The translations under genes were made by a program, and so were the position numbers. A stretch of DNA of 51,818 bases, the filler included, from Circinaria calcarea (Eukaryota): the NCBI GenBank assembly GCA_051942165.1. It is 2 parts of 2 records of this genome, joined end to end, with 100 filler letters (N's around TTAATTAATTAA, not from the genome) between each part and the next. Parts side by side here need not be neighbours in the genome. Positions count along the whole stretch, not along the records: positions 25,997 to 51,818 come from JAVECS010000089.1; 1 more part is not named here. One strand, written 5' to 3'. Under the pieces are notes generated by a model. That model saw only the letters and a list, made by a program, of their open reading frames with translations, had not been told where the DNA came from and did no database searches. Below, piece by piece: positions 3,266-47,078 of this stretch. Position 1 is the stretch's first letter, and each line of letters begins with the position of its first letter.

Positions 3266-6085
3266 ATGCCATCGTTCTTATCGGACCTCTGCAGCGAACC
3301 TGTTACTTTGACCGCCAGCGAAACCTCAATCTACGAACCACCGCATCAGTCCTCCCACGAGAAACCTGCATCCCGCTCCGCAAGCACTACCGAGACTGGG
3401 ATATGGCATTTTACTAACGGCAACATTGTCGAGCCTCCCACAACAAACAAGCACGTCAACGGCATATTAGCGGATGGGAATAATATCGCCAATAATAGTC
3501 TCCAGTCATTGCCGAATGGAAGATCGAGCGAAAGTACTCACGGTCCCGATCGACCGAATTCGAGAAACGAAAGCAGCTATTCCACAGTAAGCGGACTGGC
3601 GGGTAGTTTAGAAAACGGCCGAAAGAGCCCTGGCCCGGTCAACGGCGTCTTAAGACATGGCGGAGTTGAGCAGTCTCAGGACTTGGCTCGAACAAATAGA
3701 GGTGGATCGCCTCTCCAAAGACTTAGGACGCCGGACAGTATTGCAACAGCGATTGCCGATCGGTCCACACGCTCGAGACCGCATGCTTTATCTGAACCAC
3801 AAAGCCGTCGCAATCGTTCAGCGTCTGCGAGTAATCCGCAGAGTCCCTTTGTGAGCCCAAACACAAGTCTCGAGCTTTCAAGTAGCGAGATTGCGACGCA
3901 ACTTTCAAATAGATACTCTACGCCTCCAATTAAGCCGACATCGTCCCTAGCCCCTAGCAGCTCGTCAACGATTCTGCCACATCCTGGGGTGACCCGTCTT
4001 CAGCACCGTCATACCTTACAAGTTCCAAAGGCGACCACAACTCGGGTATCTCGAGAATTCTCATGGCCTGTTGAAAATGCGTCAGAAGATGCGATCACTG
4101 CGACCCTATCCCCAACTGCTGGCGCAGGCAGAAGAGGCTCTTTGAGCTTAGTTCGGAGGACGACTCGGTCCATTCATTCAGATATGTATCTTGAGGAAAT
4201 TCCCCAAGATGGAGAGGCGGCAAGATGGACTGAGACTATAAGACAGAAAAGGGCGAGCAGAAAGAAGAAAAAGGAGGAAGACGAGGATGACAGGGTTGTT
4301 GTAGGGACAAAGGTTGATATGAATCACGTCAACTGGGTGACAGCGTATAACATGCTCACCGGTATCCGCTTTACGGTCTCGCGTACCAACGCAAAAATGG
4401 ACCGAGAATTAACGGAACAAGATTTTGATGTGCGACATAAGTTTTCTTTCGACATCACAGGAAATGAGTTGACACCATCTGCAAAATACGACTTCAAATT
4501 CAAGGATTACGCGCCATGGGTTTTCCGTCACCTACGAACAAAGTTTGGTTTGGACCCGGCAGATTATTTGATCTCACTAACGAGTAAATACATCCTCTCC
4601 GAACTGGGCTCTCCTGGAAAAAGTGGAAGCTTTTTTTACTTTTCTCGGGATTACAAGTACATAATCAAGACTATTCATCATGCTGAGCATAAACTACTCA
4701 GAAGGATTCTGCGCGATTACTATGCTCATATTGAGCAGAATCCAAACACCCTGATATCTCAGTTTTACGGGCTTCACCGCGTTAAGATACCCTATGGTCG
4801 GAAAATTCACTTTGTCGTCATGAACAATCTATTCCCCCCCCACCGCGACATACATCAGACCTTTGATTTGAAAGGCTCTACTATAGGGCGGAATTTCAGG
4901 GAGGATGATCTGGAGAAAAACCCTAGAGCCACGCTCAAGGACCTGAACTGGTTACGACGCAACTACCACCTTGAGTTTGGACCCGAGAAGAAAAGGCTTT
5001 TTATTGACCAGGTAATACGAGATGTTAGGCTCTTGCAGAAACTGAAGATTATGGATTATTCGTTGTTGGTTGGGATTCATGATCTTCGGAAGGGTAACGA
5101 GGAGAACCTACGGGACAAGACCTTGCAAGTCTTCCAACCAGGAGTACAGGCCAATGAGGAACCCCAGCCTAATATGCTGACGCGGACACCATCGAAATTG
5201 GAGAACGCTCGTAAAGCAAGGGAGTTACGGAATATCATCAAGCGGGAGAAGCCGGTTCCAATGGAGCAAAGCTCAAACAAGATGCCGGAGGAGATACAGG
5301 AAGAGCGCAGAAACCTTTTGTTCTACAGTGACGACGGTGGTTTCAGGGCGACCCATGAGGACGGCCGGCCAGGCGATGAGATATACTATCTTGGGATTAT
5401 TGACTGTCTGACCCATGTAAGCCATTTGAGACCGTTAGCACAGGGAGAAGCTAATGTTATTTAGTACGGGATTGTTAAGAAGGCCGAGCATCTCTGGAAA
5501 GGAATGTCGCATGACAAAAGTCAGATTTCGCCGATAGCGCCGCAAGCCTATGGTGACCGTTTCGTAAAGTTCATTACTGGCATAACGATGCCAAGCGAGC
5601 AGGTTGAACAGCAAAGTCATGATCAGCTTGACGGATCCATTCACACTAACCGACCATCAAGCCATTACCTCTCGCGATCTTCTACAGATAGAGTTATGGA
5701 GAAGGCGGAGAAGCAGGCTCTAAAGACAGCAGATCAAAGTGGATCGGACGGCGAACCACATGACCGTACGATGGGCGCAATACAACGCCCTTCCACGGAC
5801 ATACTGAACGGGATGGGGGGGCCAACATTACCAATTGTGCAGGAGGATGGCGAAGCCAGTAGCACCGGTGGGCGTAGCGCGCAAAGTCGAGAAAGAGAAA
5901 ACGGCGCCTCATCCCCAAGGCCACAAACACCAAACGGACTGCTTCTTGAACCACCTCCACTGGGAGGGAATCCTCCGCCAACTCCCCCGAAAGACATTGT
6001 AATGCGTGAGAAGCAACTTCCGTCCCTTCCTCAGGCGTCATCACTTACCAATTCGTTTCCTATTCTCAGTCCAAACAGTGGCTGA
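3266..6085 (+). CDS. MSS4: Phosphatidylinositol-4-phosphate 5-kinase (Mss4/Its3 ortholog); intron 5417-5464
   Basis: PIP5K motifs FKFKDYAPWVF, SPGKSGSFFYFSRDYKYIIKT, FDLKGST, IMDYSLLVG and YYLGIIDCLTH|YG. A GTAAGC...TAG intron joins in frame to the 5504-6085 ORF. Long low-complexity N-terminus. Confidence 0.95.
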
Positions 6086-25996: not shown

Positions 25997-26417
25997 GCCT
26001 GGGCCACCGTTGAGCCAGATGGTGATCTCGTCCGAGGCGGCAGGATTCTCGGATGGAAAGAACCAGAAATAGAGTTGACGAGTCTCGTTGACGGCGCTGG
26101 AGATGGGAAGGAGTCCAGCATATGATTCACCAATATCAAAATCGACATCTGGGATAGCGGTGCCATTGACAGCAAATTCTAGCATGCTTCAGTCAATCGT
26201 TCGTAAGCGTTCTGTCAACGTACAGCTTACTGCTAGTATTTGCATTCAAGTAGGATGAGGCACGTTTCGCGTGAGGCGTCGCCGGGTACCTTGGTATAGA
26301 GAAGTCTCTCTTGGCTTTGGGTGCCCTTTGCGGCAAGCTCTTACCCACATGTTGCGGACTCCTCGCCACTGTCAGGCAGACGCTCGCGAGCAAGGTGAAG
26401 ATGGTAAAGCTTTGCAT
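25997..26417 (-). CDS. Secreted serine carboxypeptidase (peptidase S10, CpdS/Sxa2-like), 5' part only; truncated by the gap
   Basis: Signal peptide [18 protein letters not shown], Kex2-type KR sites, then after one intron [25 protein letters not shown]...LYFWFFPS...[10 protein letters not shown]. Confidence 0.9.
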
Positions 26418-34359: not shown

Positions 34360-36229
34360 ATGCCTCTCAATGCTCAAGCCATCTATCCTGCATCCGATCC
34401 GGATTTCATATCATTTCCCAGTCGACGCAGTGTTGTTCACAGCACCAATGGCATGATAGCTTGTACACAGCCTTTAGCCGCCGAAGCTGGTCAGAGGATA
34501 CTCAGAGCAGGAGGGAATGCCGCAGATGCTGCCGTGGCCGTAGCAGCCGCGCTAAACATGACCGAACCGTCCTCAACAGGTATTGGTGGAGACATGTTCT
34601 GTCTGTTCTACAATTCCAAGACGAAGAAGGTCCATGCCTTGAATGGTTCTGGAAGAGCGGCTGCGAAGGTTAGCTTGGAAGGCATGAGGAAGGACCTGGG
34701 AATGAAACCTGGGGAGTCTGGGAGAATTCCCATGACCAGCGTCCACGCTGTTACCACCCCCGGCGCTCCAGCCGGTTGGGTGGACACGGTTGAAAAGTTT
34801 GGGAGTGGGAAGCTTTCCATGGAAGAAATCCTTATGCCTGCAATTCAGCTTGGAGAAGAAGGCTTTCCTGTCTCCGAGCTTTCCTCATACTTCGTGAGTC
34901 TGGTCCACTCAAGATCAACCTACACACTTGTCTCATAATCCACAGTGGCAGACTAGCGAGAAGTCAATTCGGAATGCATCTCCGAACTTTAGTGAAATGT
35001 TAAAGTCTGACAGCAAAGCTCAGGATGGCAAACGAGCGCCGTTGCCGGGAGAGATTATGAAAAATCCGACTCTCGCCAACACCTTTCGATTGCTAGCGAA
35101 ACACGGGAAAAAGGGTTACTATGAAGGACCGGTTGCTGAAGCCTTGATCAAGGTTGTACAAGATCTAGGTGGCCACCTAACTTTGGATGATCTAAAGAAT
35201 CACGCCCAATCTGGCAGTCAAGAGGTGGATGCCATCTCACTCAAGTTCAACGGTCAGAACATTGGGAAGATACAAGCTGAGCATGCCGAGGATCAACTAA
35301 ACTCTGGAGTGGAGGTTTGGGAACATCCTCCGAACGGACAAGGAATTGTGGCGCTTATGGCTCTCGGCATTCTAGAAGAGCTGGAGCGAACGGGAAAGCT
35401 AAGGAAATTTGACGAGAAAGAACACAATTGCGTCGAATACCTTCATGCCTTGATCGAGTCACTCCGAATATCATTCGCGGATGCTAATTGGTGGGTGACA
35501 GACCCCGACGTCGAAAAGGTCCCGACCAAGGAACTGATCTCACGAGACTATCTCGCAGAACGCGCGAAGCTATTCGATCCGAAGAAAGCGTCCAAGCACC
35601 CTCATCACGGCTCACCGGCCCACAACCACTGCGATACCGTGTATTTTGCAGCCACCGACAAGTTTGGGAACGGCATCTCGTTTATCAATAGCAACTATGG
35701 AGGATTTGGTACTTGCATTATTCCCAAGGGTTGTGGGTTCACCCTCCAAAACCGGGGTGCGAATTTCAAGCTCGAGGAAGGCCATCCAAACGTGCTCGCT
35801 CCCAACAAGCGACCGTACCATACCATCATCCCTGCGATGATCACGAATCCGGAGGACCAGAGCCTGCATACCGTGTATGGAGTGATGGGGGGTTTCATGC
35901 AGCCGCAAGGTCATGTGCAGGTGCTCTTGAACATGCTCACGTTCAAGTACAACCCCCAGTCTGCGCTTGACGCGCCTCGAATCTGCATCGGAGCCGGCAT
36001 GCCCGATCAGGGTAAGGTGCTGGACACGACGGTCTACCTGGAAGACGGCATCCCCGAAGAGGTGGCGCGGGAGCTCAAGGGAATGGGCCATGAGGTTGAA
36101 ATGCTGAAAGGTTACCAGAGGGGATTGTTCGGGCGCGGACAGGTTATCAGATGTCACATGGAAGATGGCAAACATGTATATAGCGCCGGCAGCGATCCAC
36201 GAGGGGACGGCGCTGCGATTCCCGCATGA
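34360..36229 (+). CDS. Gamma-glutamyltransferase-family Ntn hydrolase (YwrD/HpxW-like cytosolic type); intron 34894-34945
   Basis: GGNAADAAVAVAAAL, EPSSTGIGGDMF, NGSGR, PPNGQG, autoproteolytic DTVYF (Thr nucleophile), LQNRG, KRPYHTIIP, GVMGGFMQPQG, SDPRGDG; no N-terminal anchor. Confidence 0.93.
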
Positions 36230-36929
36230 GTGAATTCGTTTAGTTTCTTGTTTGATAATGTCCCAAGTTCGAGTCCTTGGAGATGGGAGGTAAGGCGTCG
36301 GGAGCGGGCCGAGGATCCCCTCACATCTACCAAGTACTATAGTAGATAATGGCCTTCTCCCCCTGCGGAGACCCAAGCGTCCAATGGCTGTGCATCGCTG
36401 ACGCCCCGGTGCCCCCCACCTTATCATTGTTACTATGTAGTAGAGTGTGGTTAGAAGACCGGACGCTGATTCGTCGCATCTTCGATCTGCTCCTGCCCCA
36501 CGAACTCTAATTCTTCCGAACCCCCCCCTCTCCCTCTCTTTCCTTTCTTTCAGCGGCCGCCTTTCAGACCGTCCCAAATTCGAATCTCACCCCCTCGCTC
36601 CAGGCTTAGTGTGTGACTCGCTTCCGGGCGGAGGACTGTCCATTGTTCAGCTCTCCCTTCGAACATATATAAAGGCAGGCCCTCTCCAGAGATCGTTCCG
36701 ATTCAAATACACTCGCTGCTAGAACACTTGGCCCTACGTCCTGTTGATCAGGAACCGGCCACCCTTCACCCCGCTTTGCGCTCACCGTCAATCGCTGTAC
36801 GACCTTGCTTCGCTGCAAGCTCCCGGAGACCTGCAAGAGCCGCCTGCTTCCAGTAGTGACTCGACCTGCTGCACTCGCCCGGAAGATTGACCGCTCTGAC
36901 ATCTTCAAAACCAGTCCCGGTTCGTCGTC

Positions 36930-38514
<1,585 letters not shown>

Positions 38515-43320: not shown

Positions 43321-44126
43321 TCGCTTTTAACCACTCTTCTTGACACAGATTCCTGTTAGCCTTAGGACCCCAGCCCCACGGCAACCCTGTTCATGGGTGT
43401 CTTGGGCGTAGGGGTGGGCACAATGGTTCAGTACGAATTGAAAAAGCGTTGGTCCTTTAGGAAATAGGAGCCAGCAGAACAGGCGATTATGGCTTCATCT
43501 ATGGCAGTAAGGCTATAAGCAGTTATGGCCTTGAAGTATGTGTGTTTCTACTCAAACAGAGTTCTCACCCTTTTCTGCTGCTTTCGGCATGGCCCGTATT
43601 ACCTGCCGCGTGGGTTGGAGCTGAATGAATTCAGCAGCGTGCCTGATGGTAATACCAACAATATGTAGGAAGTTTCTCTTCACGGTGATCCTTCATTCGT
43701 TTCGGTGTTAGCTTAGCTGATCTTTTGCAATACATTCTAGCCAGTAGTAACAATTCCGCCTCCACTTACTGAATCGCAACTCGAGACGTGTCAGGCAAAA
43801 GTGCAGTATCTGCTAGTGTTGGACGATAGAATACGGCATCACAACAAAGAAGAGGCAGGCATTGCGCCTCACACAGGCAGTGGTCATAGTGTTATTGAAG
43901 ATCTCGAAGGAAATATGACCTTGAATGTTTGCAACTATACCCTGTTGGTGCTGTTGTAGAGGAGATCTCGAAACTGGCACGGCCTGGCTGTTTAGTGGTC
44001 CTACTGCTGTTTGAAACTCTCGAAGGGCTCATGAGCTGGAAGGGGTTGTTACTGTACAAAGTTGGGTGCTATTGCAGAATAGACTCCGAGATTTGCACCG
44101 CCTGACTGTTCAACCGTTGGCTCTTG

Positions 44127-44378
44127 TATAAAGGACGCCTCCACTCATAAAGATGTTCCTCAGTAGCAGGCTTCCTTCAATCATCACATTAGTCCAGTAT
44201 TCACTTAACACTACCTTGAGCAGTCCCGGCGACTCCTCATCAGTTTCATCGCACTACAACCATCCTTTTCACTACACTCAGATCTATCGTTCTCTCCGCC
44301 TCTATTTGTCAAGCAGGTAGGGGTCTCGGGCAGAAGTTCTTCGCCAAACCGTTTCTGATACTCCTCGCTTAGGTAAGT
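44127..44378 (+). promoter_or_regulatory. TATA box, AUG-free leader, and 5'-UTR intron (44317-44372) immediately followed by a second donor GTAAGT (44373)
   Basis: TATAAA at about 44127; CAG|GTAGGG...CTGAT...TTAG|GTAAGT. Confidence 0.55.
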
Positions 44379-44428
44379 AACCTTCACACGGAAAAGCCCT
44401 ATCTCGCGGCACCCTCTCGGCCCGGAAT

Positions 44429-44830
44429 ATGAAATTTATCGCCTCCGTTAGCGTCATCCTCTCGCTTACCAGCTTCGCCCTTGCCACCTTTATCCCCGAA
44501 GGAGGCATCCAACAGCGAGACGCCGCAGGAGAAATCTTTCAGTCTCGCCAACTCGATAGTCGAGCCCAGCGCACCTGTAAAAACCAAGGTTATATCGGTC
44601 GGCCCAAGTACGATCCCAACTGCCTACCGGCGAACAGCAAGGGTTATAAAAGCTCGCACAACTGCGCCAGCGGAGGACATAAATCTTACCTGTGCGTGGA
44701 AAACGGCGTTGCAACCTGCTATGTAAGTCTTTTCCGATACCGCTTGCTGTTCCAGGTAGGTTAACCGCTTTTATAGACCGGAGGACAAGTCAAGAAGCTC
44801 AACGCAGAAGGAGGCGAGTGCTTCAAATAG
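44429..44830 (+). CDS. Small secreted cationic cysteine-rich peptide precursor (115 aa, 6 Cys), putative antimicrobial/effector; intron 44723-44776
   Basis: Signal MKFIASVSVILSLTSFALA, acidic Arg-ended pro-segment, mature part of about 70 aa AQRTCKNQG...NC...NC...LC...TCY|TGGQVKKLNAEGGECFK*. Splicing supplies the sixth Cys. The mature part has 10 K/R against 4 D/E. Confidence 0.85.
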
Positions 44831-44854
44831 GCCCAATAACCAAAATCGCCCAGA

Positions 44855-45196
44855 ATGAACGTCCCACTTGCCAGCAGCACCATTCTTTCCACTCCCGCCC
44901 TCGCCGAACTCGCCACCTCCGGCGCCCTGAACGAAATCGCAAACTCCCCCGGTTCCATCAAGCATCACATCACGCGGGACGGCCAGATCGAGAACGGCCG
45001 TGTCAGTCGCCCGCTGTTCTTTGCCATCTATCAGACTGGCCGTTACGGACCACAGAACGGCTTTAAACTCTGCCTAGTACATCAGCATTTCGAGCTCGAC
45101 CGCTACGATTTCTCGGGCTTAGAGCAGGAGATTGCGTCAGGGACGGCGGAGTATATGGTGCTCGGGACTGCGGGACCGCCCATTAGAGATCCATGA
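44855..45196 (+). CDS. Small non-secreted hypothetical protein (113 aa) starting 24 nt after the peptide gene stop
   Basis: Intact ATG-TGA ORF with C-rich third positions and globular composition (PLFFAIYQTGRYGPQNGFKLCLVH); no signal peptide. Confidence 0.65.
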   Translation: MNVPLASSTILSTPALAELATSGALNEIANSPGSIKHHITRDGQIENGRVSRPLFFAIYQTGRYGPQNGFKLCLVHQHFELDRYDFSGLEQEIASGTAEYMVLGTAGPPIRDP

Positions 45197-46274
45197 GCTG
45201 TGAGCGTGCATAACTATTTCGAGTCTGCTCGGAGGCTGCGATGTATGCGATAGTTTAGCTACTGCGAAATAGAAAAGCTGGTGGATACTACCACTATACT
45301 GCTGTGCAATCATCGTCAAAAGAACGTTTACTGCTTATATCGTGTTTAACTTAACTCGGAACCAACTCCCCCCCAAAAAGAAAACCCAACGGTCGAGTTT
45401 TAAGGTAAGCCGGGGCTCCTTTGTGTAGAAAGGAGGAGCTTTACAAGGAGGAGACTACATCTTCAATGAGCGGCACAGTATGACCGGAATATATATATGG
45501 GTAGAAAAAAAATTGAATACTGCTATGTGTTAAATAGAGAGCCAAGCATACCGTATGTTATACAAAAGTTCTGTACTGCCCATATTAATACTAGCGTGGG
45601 CTATAGAGTTTTCCCCTTGGCTTCGCACTTTGCGAACCATACACGTTACACAATATATCGACTATTGCGTACACATTGAATACCGTCTTGATGCATTGCT
45701 TAAGCCACTCCCTGCTAAGCCTTTGACACTATGAAATGCTGTACAAATTCTGTATATGTACTATATATATAATATGTACGTGTCGGGAAGCAAAGTGGGC
45801 ATCGCTAAAATATGGGACGAGACGCGCGCCTAATGAGCGCTACTTTCCCGCCACTTTCCCGATGTGCTCCAGAGCCGGTTTTCACCATGGTGATATATAG
45901 CCTAATATACTACGTATATGCTATTGCTGAACGTGCTAAGCTATATTTGGCATTACGGGTATGAAATCTGTAAAGACGGTTTGCTCTTCAAGCCTCGCAT
46001 AATATCCTTTCGAACTACCGCCAAAACGCCCAAAAACCATGCCAGTCTAAACACTCCCTGTCCAGTCCCAGCAAAATAAGTTTGGAAAAAAAACCCCCAA
46101 CAACATAAACAGGCCCCTCTTTGTCAATTTGTGCAAATGCCGCCCTTTCATGCAGAGATCCTCCACCTCAACTTCTGTCTTCTCCACCTCACAAGTTCTC
46201 GCCATGGCCAGCCATGTTCAATCAACCTTTGCAAGTCCAGACTCTAGTAAACACTTTCCCATAGTTGTGCCTCC

Positions 46275-47078
46275 CTACGCTGAAGGGCTGCAAGATGCTG
46301 GAATAACAGGTCTTCGCGTCGATCGAGAGCCTCTTGTGCGCGAATCCCTTGAGTGAGACGCCGCTTGCACATCCCGAGCTGTGAATGATTGGAGGTCACG
46401 GCGTCGGTCAACAAATGCGGCGGCATAGTCCAGGGATCTCTGGTGCCTGGGGGAGCTACTGCGGGAGCCGCTGTTAGGAGAGCCTTTGGGGGAGGGAGAG
46501 TCTTTTGGAGAGCTAGGAGAGGGCTCCCGAGTGGGAGGTTCGGAAAGATTGAAATCAACGACGCTAACCTCGGGTTGGACGTCTCTGACTTTAGCATCGG
46601 CGACGCGCTTTGCGCAATTGCGTGCCCCTGGACCACAAGCAGGAATGACTTTTCGATCCTTTAAGCTGTATGTTACGACGGTGCCACCTTGAAATCCACC
46701 CGGGACAATCCTGGCGGCTAATTCCTCCCCGTGCTCGCCGTCTCCTGATGAGGCAAAGACGAAGTCACCGCGCGTGTTCTGGTAGACCGTTATTGCCATC
46801 GGGGCAGTCGGTGGTTTCTTAGCAAGACCTTTCAAAATAGCAACCATATGTCTGGCGGCCAATACGCACACGGCAGCCATATTATCTGGTCCCATGATAT
46901 GGTCGGTCTTATATATGCCTTGGAATCTGTTGCCTTTTAACTCCACCCATTTGCCGCTGTATTTCGGTGTTATGGGTGCTCGTCTTCCAAGAGCATGACT
47001 GGAGCTGTCACCAAAGACTAGCTGGCTTGTCGCGGCTAGTAAAAGCAGGACAACATGCCGCGAAACGCTGAAGAGCAT
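46275..47078 (-). CDS. Secreted protein with a Zn-dependent deaminase-like signature (putative toxin/effector), 267 aa
   Basis: TATAAA at about 47270, signal MLFSVSRHVVLLLLAATSQLVFG, pro-peptide ending in RR, domain with FVFASSG-DGE-HGE...VVTY...IPACGPGARNC, then an S/P-rich linker and an Arg-site-rich tail. Confidence 0.7.
   Translation of the reverse strand: MLFSVSRHVVLLLLAATSQLVFGDSSSHALGRRAPITPKYSGKWVELKGNRFQGIYKTDHIMGPDNMAAVCVLAARHMVAILKGLAKKPPTAPMAITVYQNTRGDFVFASSGDGEHGEELAARIVPGGFQGGTVVTYSLKDRKVIPACGPGARNCAKRVADAKVRDVQPEVSVVDFNLSEPPTREPSPSSPKDSPSPKGSPNSGSRSSSPRHQRSLDYAAAFVDRRRDLQSFTARDVQAASHSRDSRTRGSRSTRRPVIPASCSPSA

Follow-up and report, generated by a model that had tools for sequence, protein, structure and literature searches.

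Dicistronic genes are already known in eukaryotes, fungi included. Translated dicistronic messenger RNAs (mRNAs) are rare in fungi, and in the published accounts consulted here the documented ascomycete cases are pairs of secondary-metabolite enzymes from one species. In Glarea lozoyensis, glpks3 and glnrps7 were described as two open reading frames (ORFs) of one transcript with a 26-bp spacer (PMC4471562), and the IGG sequence, which was derived from the Glarea spacer, is described as supporting re-initiation in yeasts and in Aspergillus nidulans (PMC10352335). AUG-poor upstream ORFs have been presented as a mark of leaky-scanning bicistrons in green algae and in stoned and Snapin of Drosophila (PMC11291117). 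For the polycistrons of Agaricomycetes, it was described that the genes are also transcribed independently and that read-through may repress the downstream gene; the same account reports none in Neurospora crassa and a conservation that falls off outside Agaricomycetes (PMC4503453). Here we analysed 51,818 nucleotides (nt) of DNA from Circinaria calcarea (GenBank assembly GCA_051942165.1; two parts joined by 100 filler letters, positions 25,997 to 51,818 coming from JAVECS010000089.1), hereafter the window, in which the gene of a secreted cysteine-rich peptide is closely followed on the same strand by an ORF for an intracellular protein (ORF2). What is notable in this case is the age of the pair and the combination of a secreted Cys-rich peptide with an intracellular protein.

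We propose, with about an even chance of being right, that the two genes are an old, tightly linked pair expressed as one dicistronic mRNA, from which ORF2 would be translated by leaky scanning or re-initiation. The proposal is carried by the conservation of both genes and of their linkage, by the use of the peptide intron junction and the continuity of RNA into ORF2 in a close relative, and by a path free of ATG between the two start codons.

Results

The locus has the following layout, with positions counted along the window.

44127-44134, + strand: TATA-like box TATAAAGG, presumed promoter element of the unit (read in the sequence, with a putative function)
44156-44428, + strand: presumed 5' leader, 273 nt, ATG-free
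44429-44722, + strand: peptide exon 1, 98 codons for the signal peptide, the pro-region and five of the six Cys of the mature domain
44723-44776, + strand: peptide intron, 54 nt, GTAAGT...TATAG, phase 0, with its junction 44722>44777 present in RNA contigs of a relative
44777-44830, + strand: peptide exon 2, 17 codons with the sixth Cys, then TAG (44828-44830)
44831-44854, + strand: spacer between the peptide gene and ORF2, 24 nt, A/C-rich, without ATG, AATAAA or ATTAAA
44855-45196, + strand: ORF2, 113 amino acids (aa), acidic (isoelectric point (pI) 5.7), without a signal peptide

Judged by their homologues, the peptide ORF and ORF2 are both genuine, conserved genes, as the earlier note on this DNA had supposed when it read two protein genes here. 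All six candidates for the peptide family were homologues with an invariant Cys framework, and 13 of the 19 candidates for ORF2 were homologues (E 2e-61 to 3e-8, 37-89% identity). The linked pair was found in filamentous fungi of several classes, and in at least five lineages; the earlier note had counted it against its own idea if ORF2 homologues never lay beside the peptide. For example, a single gene model covers both the peptide and ORF2 in the public annotation of Clonostachys rosea (VUC29452.1, Sordariomycetes) and in Teloschistes flavicans (KAI4256366.1), Villophora microphyllina and Teloschistes chrysophthalmus (Lecanoromycetes). The junctions of these models differ among the three Teloschistaceae, and the merged models are therefore probably annotation artefacts; they nevertheless prove that the peptide and ORF2 are adjacent on the same strand. 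Public genomes mis-annotate the pair, by merging it into a single protein or, probably, by missing the peptide. In the protein collection, merged public models are P0036, P0043, P0140, P0141 and P0139, one of which joins an ORF2 homologue to a WD40 protein in Fusarium vanettenii (NECHADRAFT_75696); the splice junctions of these models disagree, and annotation errors are their likely source.

The metagenome scan with the ORF2 alignment gave 15 loci, two of which (L006 and L015) are cut at or inside ORF2, so that upstream DNA was available for 13. In these 13 the peptide was sought with tblastn (E<=10) and with a hidden Markov model (HMM) of its core, filters off (hmmsearch --max). In L010 a peptide homologue lies directly upstream of ORF2 on the same strand (exon 1 4445-4663, exon 2 4793-4846, ORF2 ATG at 4953), with an intron of 129 nt (GTGAGT...TTAG), a spacer of 106 nt and an ORF2 that is 38% identical to that of the window. 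L002 is cut by the contig end and keeps the acceptor and exon 2 ('...GFENGECFL', stop), with a spacer of 80 nt to ORF2. The peptide was not found in the other 11 of the 13 (L001, L003, L004, L005, L007, L008, L009, L011, L012, L013 and L014); among these, L003, L004, L005, L007 and L008 are one species, L013 and L014 are identical, and L001 has only 284 nt of upstream sequence. Close relatives also appear to be linked: P0001 and P0014 probably share one contig (the longest contig of both being 5436 nt), and the N-terminal extension of P0002 seems to read out of the peptide's '...CFK-stop' end. In the ORF2 tree, which has 41 rows, the deepest split (98/97 support) has linked members on either side, and these occur at five distinct positions among stand-alone ones. 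The simplest history compatible with this tree would be an ancestral linked pair from which the peptide was repeatedly lost or relocated.

The L010 peptide (4445-4846) has 9 Cys, not 6, and no recognisable signal peptide; the in-frame stretch upstream of it is open, without ATG, and not hydrophobic. It could be a degenerating copy that persists as a leader without ATG; alternatively, a further exon upstream may have escaped notice.

RNA evidence came from Logan contigs of three metatranscriptome runs of a single study, which belong to a relative 90-93% identical (~92%) to the window. The region compared was 44000-45500, and the contigs cover 44531 to 45160. The junction 44722>44777 (GT..AG, 54 nt) was present in contigs of two of the three runs and was the sole junction observed; since the contigs are spliced, their material is RNA. 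Both spliced contigs cross the peptide stop and the spacer into ORF2 unbroken (44536-44722 with 44777-45042, and 44594-44722 with 44777-44984), while in the third run one contig stops at 44722 and another spans 44786-45160. The spacer is only 24 nt long, and peptide mRNAs must therefore extend into ORF2. Both ORFs are probably carried on one shared mRNA. The spacer is also the part that diverges fastest in the relative, with 6 substitutions and a 1-nt deletion in 24 nt (run X1), so that a conserved spacer motif is unlikely. Within it, the change 44837 T>A in the X1 relative abolishes the in-frame TAA.

In the spliced mRNA of the window (leader from 44156 onward), the ATG of the peptide is the only one before that of ORF2. 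The leader has no ATG where 2.9 would be expected from base composition, and the 369 nt between the two starts have none either (mononucleotide shuffle P=0.013, dinucleotide shuffle P=0.035). The peptide coding sequence contains no internal ATG in any frame, against a mean of 2.95 under synonymous-codon randomisation (P=0.026), and none of 59 control chunks of 348 nt taken from long ORFs was ATG-free (mean 5.8 ATG). The same was seen in L010, where the 501 genomic nt between the starts have no ATG (mononucleotide P=0.004, dinucleotide P=0.002) and form the longest ATG-free gap of this 6.1-kb locus on either strand. The 501 nt were counted after the start ATGGATG, whose second ATG opens a 5-codon ORF. 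ORF2 itself is not ATG-poor (3 observed vs 3.4-3.7 expected). At the loci where ORF2 is alone, the closest ATG upstream of it is found at -35 to -279, and ATG density is normal further out. Both AUGs of the window have A at -3 and A at +4, and that of the peptide has T at -1.

The + strand ATGs in 44100-45200 are those at 44153, 44429, 44721, 44855, 45155 and 45193, with no others. The one at 44721 is the sole ATG inside the peptide gene; it spans the exon 1 donor and is lost when the intron is spliced out, whereas with the peptide intron retained it would give a one-codon ORF, ATG-TAA. From ATG 44153, 26 nt past the TATA-like box, a 55-codon ORF (44153-44320) could act as an upstream ORF if transcription began unusually early; the Pfam scan gave no family for it. 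The longest ATG-free gap on the + strand of the window is another one, 495 nt at 36435-36930, just past the gamma-glutamyltranspeptidase ORF (34997-36229). ATG-free gaps therefore occur elsewhere in the window, and the length of a gap is by itself no diagnostic feature.

The mature peptide (from T49) has 67 aa, 6 Cys, a pI of 9.0 and a charge of +4.5. The earlier note had derived a secreted, cationic 6-Cys peptide from the donor at 44723, which agrees with this charge and with the junction in two of the three runs. The position of the peptide intron is conserved, since all homologue gene calls run through '...ATCY|VS', and the '...GECF' end of exon 2 is kept in P0018, L002 and L010. Exon 1 matched no Pfam family at E<=1, PF11402 included, and sequence and profile searches of the peptide against PDB gave nothing meaningful (best E across the peptide and ORF2 searches 0.25). 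The AlphaFold2 (AF2) model of the exon-1 core, from which the sixth Cys, encoded in exon 2, is absent, had a mean predicted local distance difference test score (pLDDT) of 48.8, too poor for a fold comparison. The best ESM Atlas score was 0.83, and the nearest language-model clusters include an 'Antifungal protein' cluster (score 0.80), both of which are leads only. The metagenome scan with the peptide alignment gave 43 pattern matches, none of them confirmed, and no second peptide copy was found in the window. In P0146, a peptide homologue from a prokaryote-style gene call with one frame visible, 73 leader codons are in frame without Met, which hints that long ATG-poor leaders may be common in the peptide family.

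ORF2 is, by sequence similarity, a member of an uncharacterised Pezizomycotina family. Its named homologues are hypothetical proteins of Bisporella sp., Pseudogymnoascus sp. and Cladosporium fusiforme, and 16 columns of the alignment, with the motif YQTGR.GPQNG at their centre, are invariant. Searched with a profile, 1.84 billion representatives gave 122 matches at E<=1e-3, 47 at E<=1e-10 and 8 at E<=1e-30, mostly stand-alone proteins of 90-190 aa; a search of longer proteins added members from Fusarium vanettenii, Xylariales, Teloschistaceae and, weakly, Schizophyllum. Weak profile matches with 5-12 matched stretches were rejected as unrelated, and the three that were scanned (P0054, P0055 and P0063) bear YadA-head or XylR N-terminal domains of bacterial type. 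ORF2 had no Pfam family and no meaningful PDB match by sequence or profile. Its AF2 model is a confident alpha/beta structure (mean pLDDT 82.7, predicted template modelling score 0.74), for which Foldseek found nothing in PDB at E<=0.001 and a wide VIA-align comparison gave a best Z of 2.6; a predicted model that lacks a PDB match does not show that the fold is new. The best ESM Atlas score of ORF2 was 0.84, a lead only. A complex prediction of ORF2 with peptide residues 49-98 scored 0.04, which gives no verdict and carries no weight either way.

Three further elements bear on how ORF2 could be expressed in other ways.

44317-44372, + strand: candidate 5' untranslated region (UTR) intron, 56 nt, GTAGGG...CTGAT...TTAG, a putative reading of the sequence
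44373-44378, + strand: GTAAGT hexamer, putative alternative donor adjoining the 3' end of the candidate leader intron
44645-44652, + strand: second TATA-like element TATAAAAG, within peptide exon 1 and 210 nt 5' of the ORF2 ATG, a possible internal promoter

The candidate leader intron has a good branch point and acceptor, and its donor, GTAGGG, is non-consensus; its excision would rebuild CAG|GTAAGT, a string like a recursive splice site. The window's own rate of GTAAGT (16 sites on both strands) gives an expectation of 0.042 in 273 nt, and the hexamer in the leader is on that count mildly unusual, though no compelling sign. No acceptor lies between it and the peptide ATG. The features to which the earlier note had drawn attention (TATA-like box, ATG-free leader, GTAAGT at 44373 and 44723, acceptor at 44776, 24-nt spacer and ORF2 ATG at 44855) are all present where it had placed them, and the spacer indeed leaves no room for an ordinary promoter of ORF2. 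The TATA-like box is not single, as that note had held, but is followed by TATAAAAG at 44645, which is made by Tyr-Lys codons of exon 1.

The surroundings are those of an ordinary ascomycete chromosome, with genes for PIP5K, an ESCO acetyltransferase, copper amine oxidase, CPSF100, gamma-glutamyltranspeptidase and a kinase. The next ORF downstream (46275-47078, - strand, 267 aa) has an N-terminal, signal-like hydrophobic stretch and no Pfam family. An Rfam scan of 43800-45700 gave no match.

Discussion

In the mechanism that we favour, transcription would begin upstream of the peptide gene, the 54-nt intron would be excised, and the mRNA would run on past the peptide stop and across the 24-nt spacer into ORF2. 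Most ribosomes would initiate at the peptide AUG and make the precursor of the secreted 6-Cys peptide. ORF2 could then be reached either by 40S subunits that pass the peptide AUG (leaky scanning) or by scanning resumed after the peptide stop (re-initiation), yielding a 113-aa intracellular protein with a predicted alpha/beta fold; no splice switch would be needed. An ATG-free exon 1 would be expected where ribosomes scan through the peptide ORF, and it would be purposeless if exon 1 were spliced out or if the mRNA of ORF2 started downstream. The old linkage suggests that the two proteins take part in a shared process. The earlier note had read the locus as one transcription unit for two proteins, and this part is strengthened by the RNA continuity of the relative and by the conserved linkage, whereas the splice switch that it proposed as the mechanism appears less likely than a dicistronic mRNA.

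Several observations weigh against a dicistronic mRNA. The contigs belong to the relative and not to C. calcarea, and assembled contigs may chain overlapping transcripts, so that they do not prove a single molecule. With the genomic sequence of 44156-44854, the dinucleotide shuffle was not significant (2 ATG observed, mean 3.38, P=0.29), and neither were the 187 nt of L002 (P=0.11-0.33) or the synonymous-codon test in L010 (P=0.12), the L010 test being, moreover, picked after the window had been seen. The peptide parts of the Clonostachys and Villophora models have one internal Met each, so that AUG avoidance does not hold strictly throughout. The peptide AUG has A at -3 in L010 as in the window and is therefore not obviously weak, and the presumed leader is long, about 214-273 nt, whereas the algal cases of leaky scanning have short leaders. 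Furthermore, ORF2 works alone in many lineages, although the 11 peptide-less metagenome loci collapse to about six. The TATA-like element within exon 1 points in the same direction.

This last element leads to an explanation that we regard as rather unlikely, namely that the two genes give overlapping but independent transcripts. ORF2 transcription would start inside the peptide gene, at TATAAAAG or at a TATA-less initiator, the copy of ORF2 in the peptide mRNA would be an untranslated 3' UTR, and the adjacency would be passive, the pair being too tight to separate easily. ORF2 evidently has its own promoter where it stands alone, in 11 of the 13 loci with upstream DNA, and separate transcription was also described for the genes of Agaricomycete polycistrons (PMC4503453); chained contigs would look the same under this explanation. 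However, it leaves the ATG-free exon 1 and path of the window and of L010 unexplained, the L010 peptide gene has no TATA-like element, and a passive neighbourhood sits poorly with a linkage that holds across the deepest split of the family and with a spacer as short as 24 nt. The splice switch, in which the donor at 44373, whether or not 44317-44372 has been removed beforehand, would be joined to the acceptor at 44776, so that the peptide start and exon 1 are dropped and the ORF2 AUG comes first in a monocistronic mRNA, is in our judgement improbable. The strings on which it relies all exist, including a perfect GTAAGT that has no acceptor before the peptide ATG and a stretch 44777-44854 without ATG, and it is compatible with dicistronic translation, with which it could coexist. 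But within the RNA cover the only junction is 44722>44777, and ATG avoidance in exon 1 would be pointless if exon 1 were removed. The skipped segment would be 404 nt, which is long for a fungal intron. In addition, the AG|GT leader donor, whose conservation the earlier note had named as a check, has no comparable counterpart in the linked L010, whose leader (4100-4444) lacks GT[AG][AT]GT and has GTGCGC at 4123 as its sole GTRNGY; the leader of L002 is cut off.

As to function, the earlier note had thought of a toxin-immunity-like pair, in which the peptide is antimicrobial and ORF2 shields or helps its producer. That a secreted, cationic, Cys-rich peptide has long been tightly linked with an intracellular protein fits some functional partnership, and the 'Antifungal protein' cluster near the peptide is a lead to this role, but no positive evidence for it emerged: the peptide matched no antimicrobial family, had no match in Pfam and none by sequence in PDB, that of L010 has no recognisable signal peptide, and co-occurrence is not obligate, ORF2 being without the peptide in most of the metagenome loci. 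P0015, P0017 and P0019 also lie on Joint Genome Institute (JGI) contigs sized unlike any ORF2-bearing contig, from which separation can be weakly argued. We hold this role to be very improbable. Hardly credible is a single secreted fusion protein made by splicing or stop-codon readthrough, which the merged models in four species might suggest and for which the window ORF2 lies in frame with peptide exon 2, 78 nt apart. Two in-frame stops (TAG at 44828 and TAA at 44837) intervene, the corresponding distances in L010 (160 nt) and L002 (134 nt) do not preserve the frame, the three Teloschistaceae junctions all differ as ab initio merging would give, and the RNA contigs carry the ordinary 44722>44777 junction; the fusion was rejected on the stops and the frame relation.

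If the dicistronic mRNA is real, a small-gene pair held together across Pezizomycotina classes would mean that dicistronic units can be old and selected, and the locus would offer a natural system for leaky scanning or re-initiation in filamentous fungi. A bolder version, which seems to us quite unlikely, is that of an ancient, obligately dicistronic Pezizomycotina gene, in which the peptide ORF would also serve as a translational gate and determine how much is made of an intracellular partner with a new fold, at a fixed ratio for one process (self-protection, maturation or peptide sensing). Its scope would be the linked pairs of Sordariomycetes, Lecanoromycetes and the lineages that, by sequence, group with Leotiomycete-like and Dothideomycete-like members, and no translated dicistron of such deep conservation would have been described before in filamentous ascomycetes. 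In the literature searched, which did not extend to subscription journals and supplements, there was no description of the peptide-ORF2 pair, of a bicistronic gene for a small secreted Cys-rich fungal protein, or of anything under five locus tags of the family. The pairing gives a testable partner to two uncharacterised families, one of secreted Cys-rich peptides and one of intracellular proteins with a confident model that matches no solved fold.

Comparison with known systems

In the bacteriocin and toxin-immunity operons of bacteria, the gene of a small exported cationic peptide is closely followed by that of a small intracellular protein in one unit, and a like arrangement, probably also in one unit, is present here. 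Unlike in these operons, ORF2 often stands alone, and eukaryotic translation needs another mechanism. The peptide resembles the AFP/PAF antifungal proteins (PF11402) in being a secreted basic prepro-peptide with 6 Cys and of similar size from filamentous ascomycetes; it differs from them in matching neither PF11402 nor a PDB chain, and it has a Cys pattern and conserved motifs peculiar to it. Recursive splicing at zero-length exons, as in Drosophila and vertebrates, subdivides very long introns. The CAG|GTAAGT that would form in the leader is like such a site, but the total here is ~460 nt, in a fungus, and the site is a candidate without a counterpart in L010.

With the read-through polycistrons of Agaricomycetes, described as adjacent same-strand fungal genes on one poly(A) RNA (PMC4503453), the locus shares its arrangement, although the pair described here spans classes of Pezizomycotina. 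The likeness to the leaky-scanning bicistrons of algae and Drosophila, as these are presented (PMC11291117), lies in an upstream ORF and an inter-ORF region without another AUG, a short inter-ORF distance and no fixed frame relation; in the window and in L010 alike, no alternative AUG stands between the two starts. In that account the Kozak-like contexts of the algal and Drosophila upstream ORFs are weak and their 5' UTRs short, whereas here A stands at -3 and the presumed leader exceeds 200 nt.

The Glarea operon, as far as it is described in the two reports cited (PMC4471562, PMC10352335), consists of large secondary-metabolite enzymes and was demonstrated by rapid amplification of cDNA ends (RACE), reverse transcription PCR (RT-PCR) and antibodies, while the present pair is small and its co-transcription is read from contigs of a relative. 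The spacer sequence here is not conserved; the likeness seen concerns its length and the missing poly(A) signal. The resemblance is otherwise close: both are found in filamentous ascomycetes, both have two complete ORFs on the same strand, introns in the upstream gene and a very short spacer without AATAAA or ATTAAA (26 bp in Glarea and 24 nt here, with 80 and 106 nt in the linked L002 and L010), and in the Glarea operon one transcript was reported, from which the distal ORF is translated without an internal ribosome entry site (IRES) (PMC4471562, PMC10352335).

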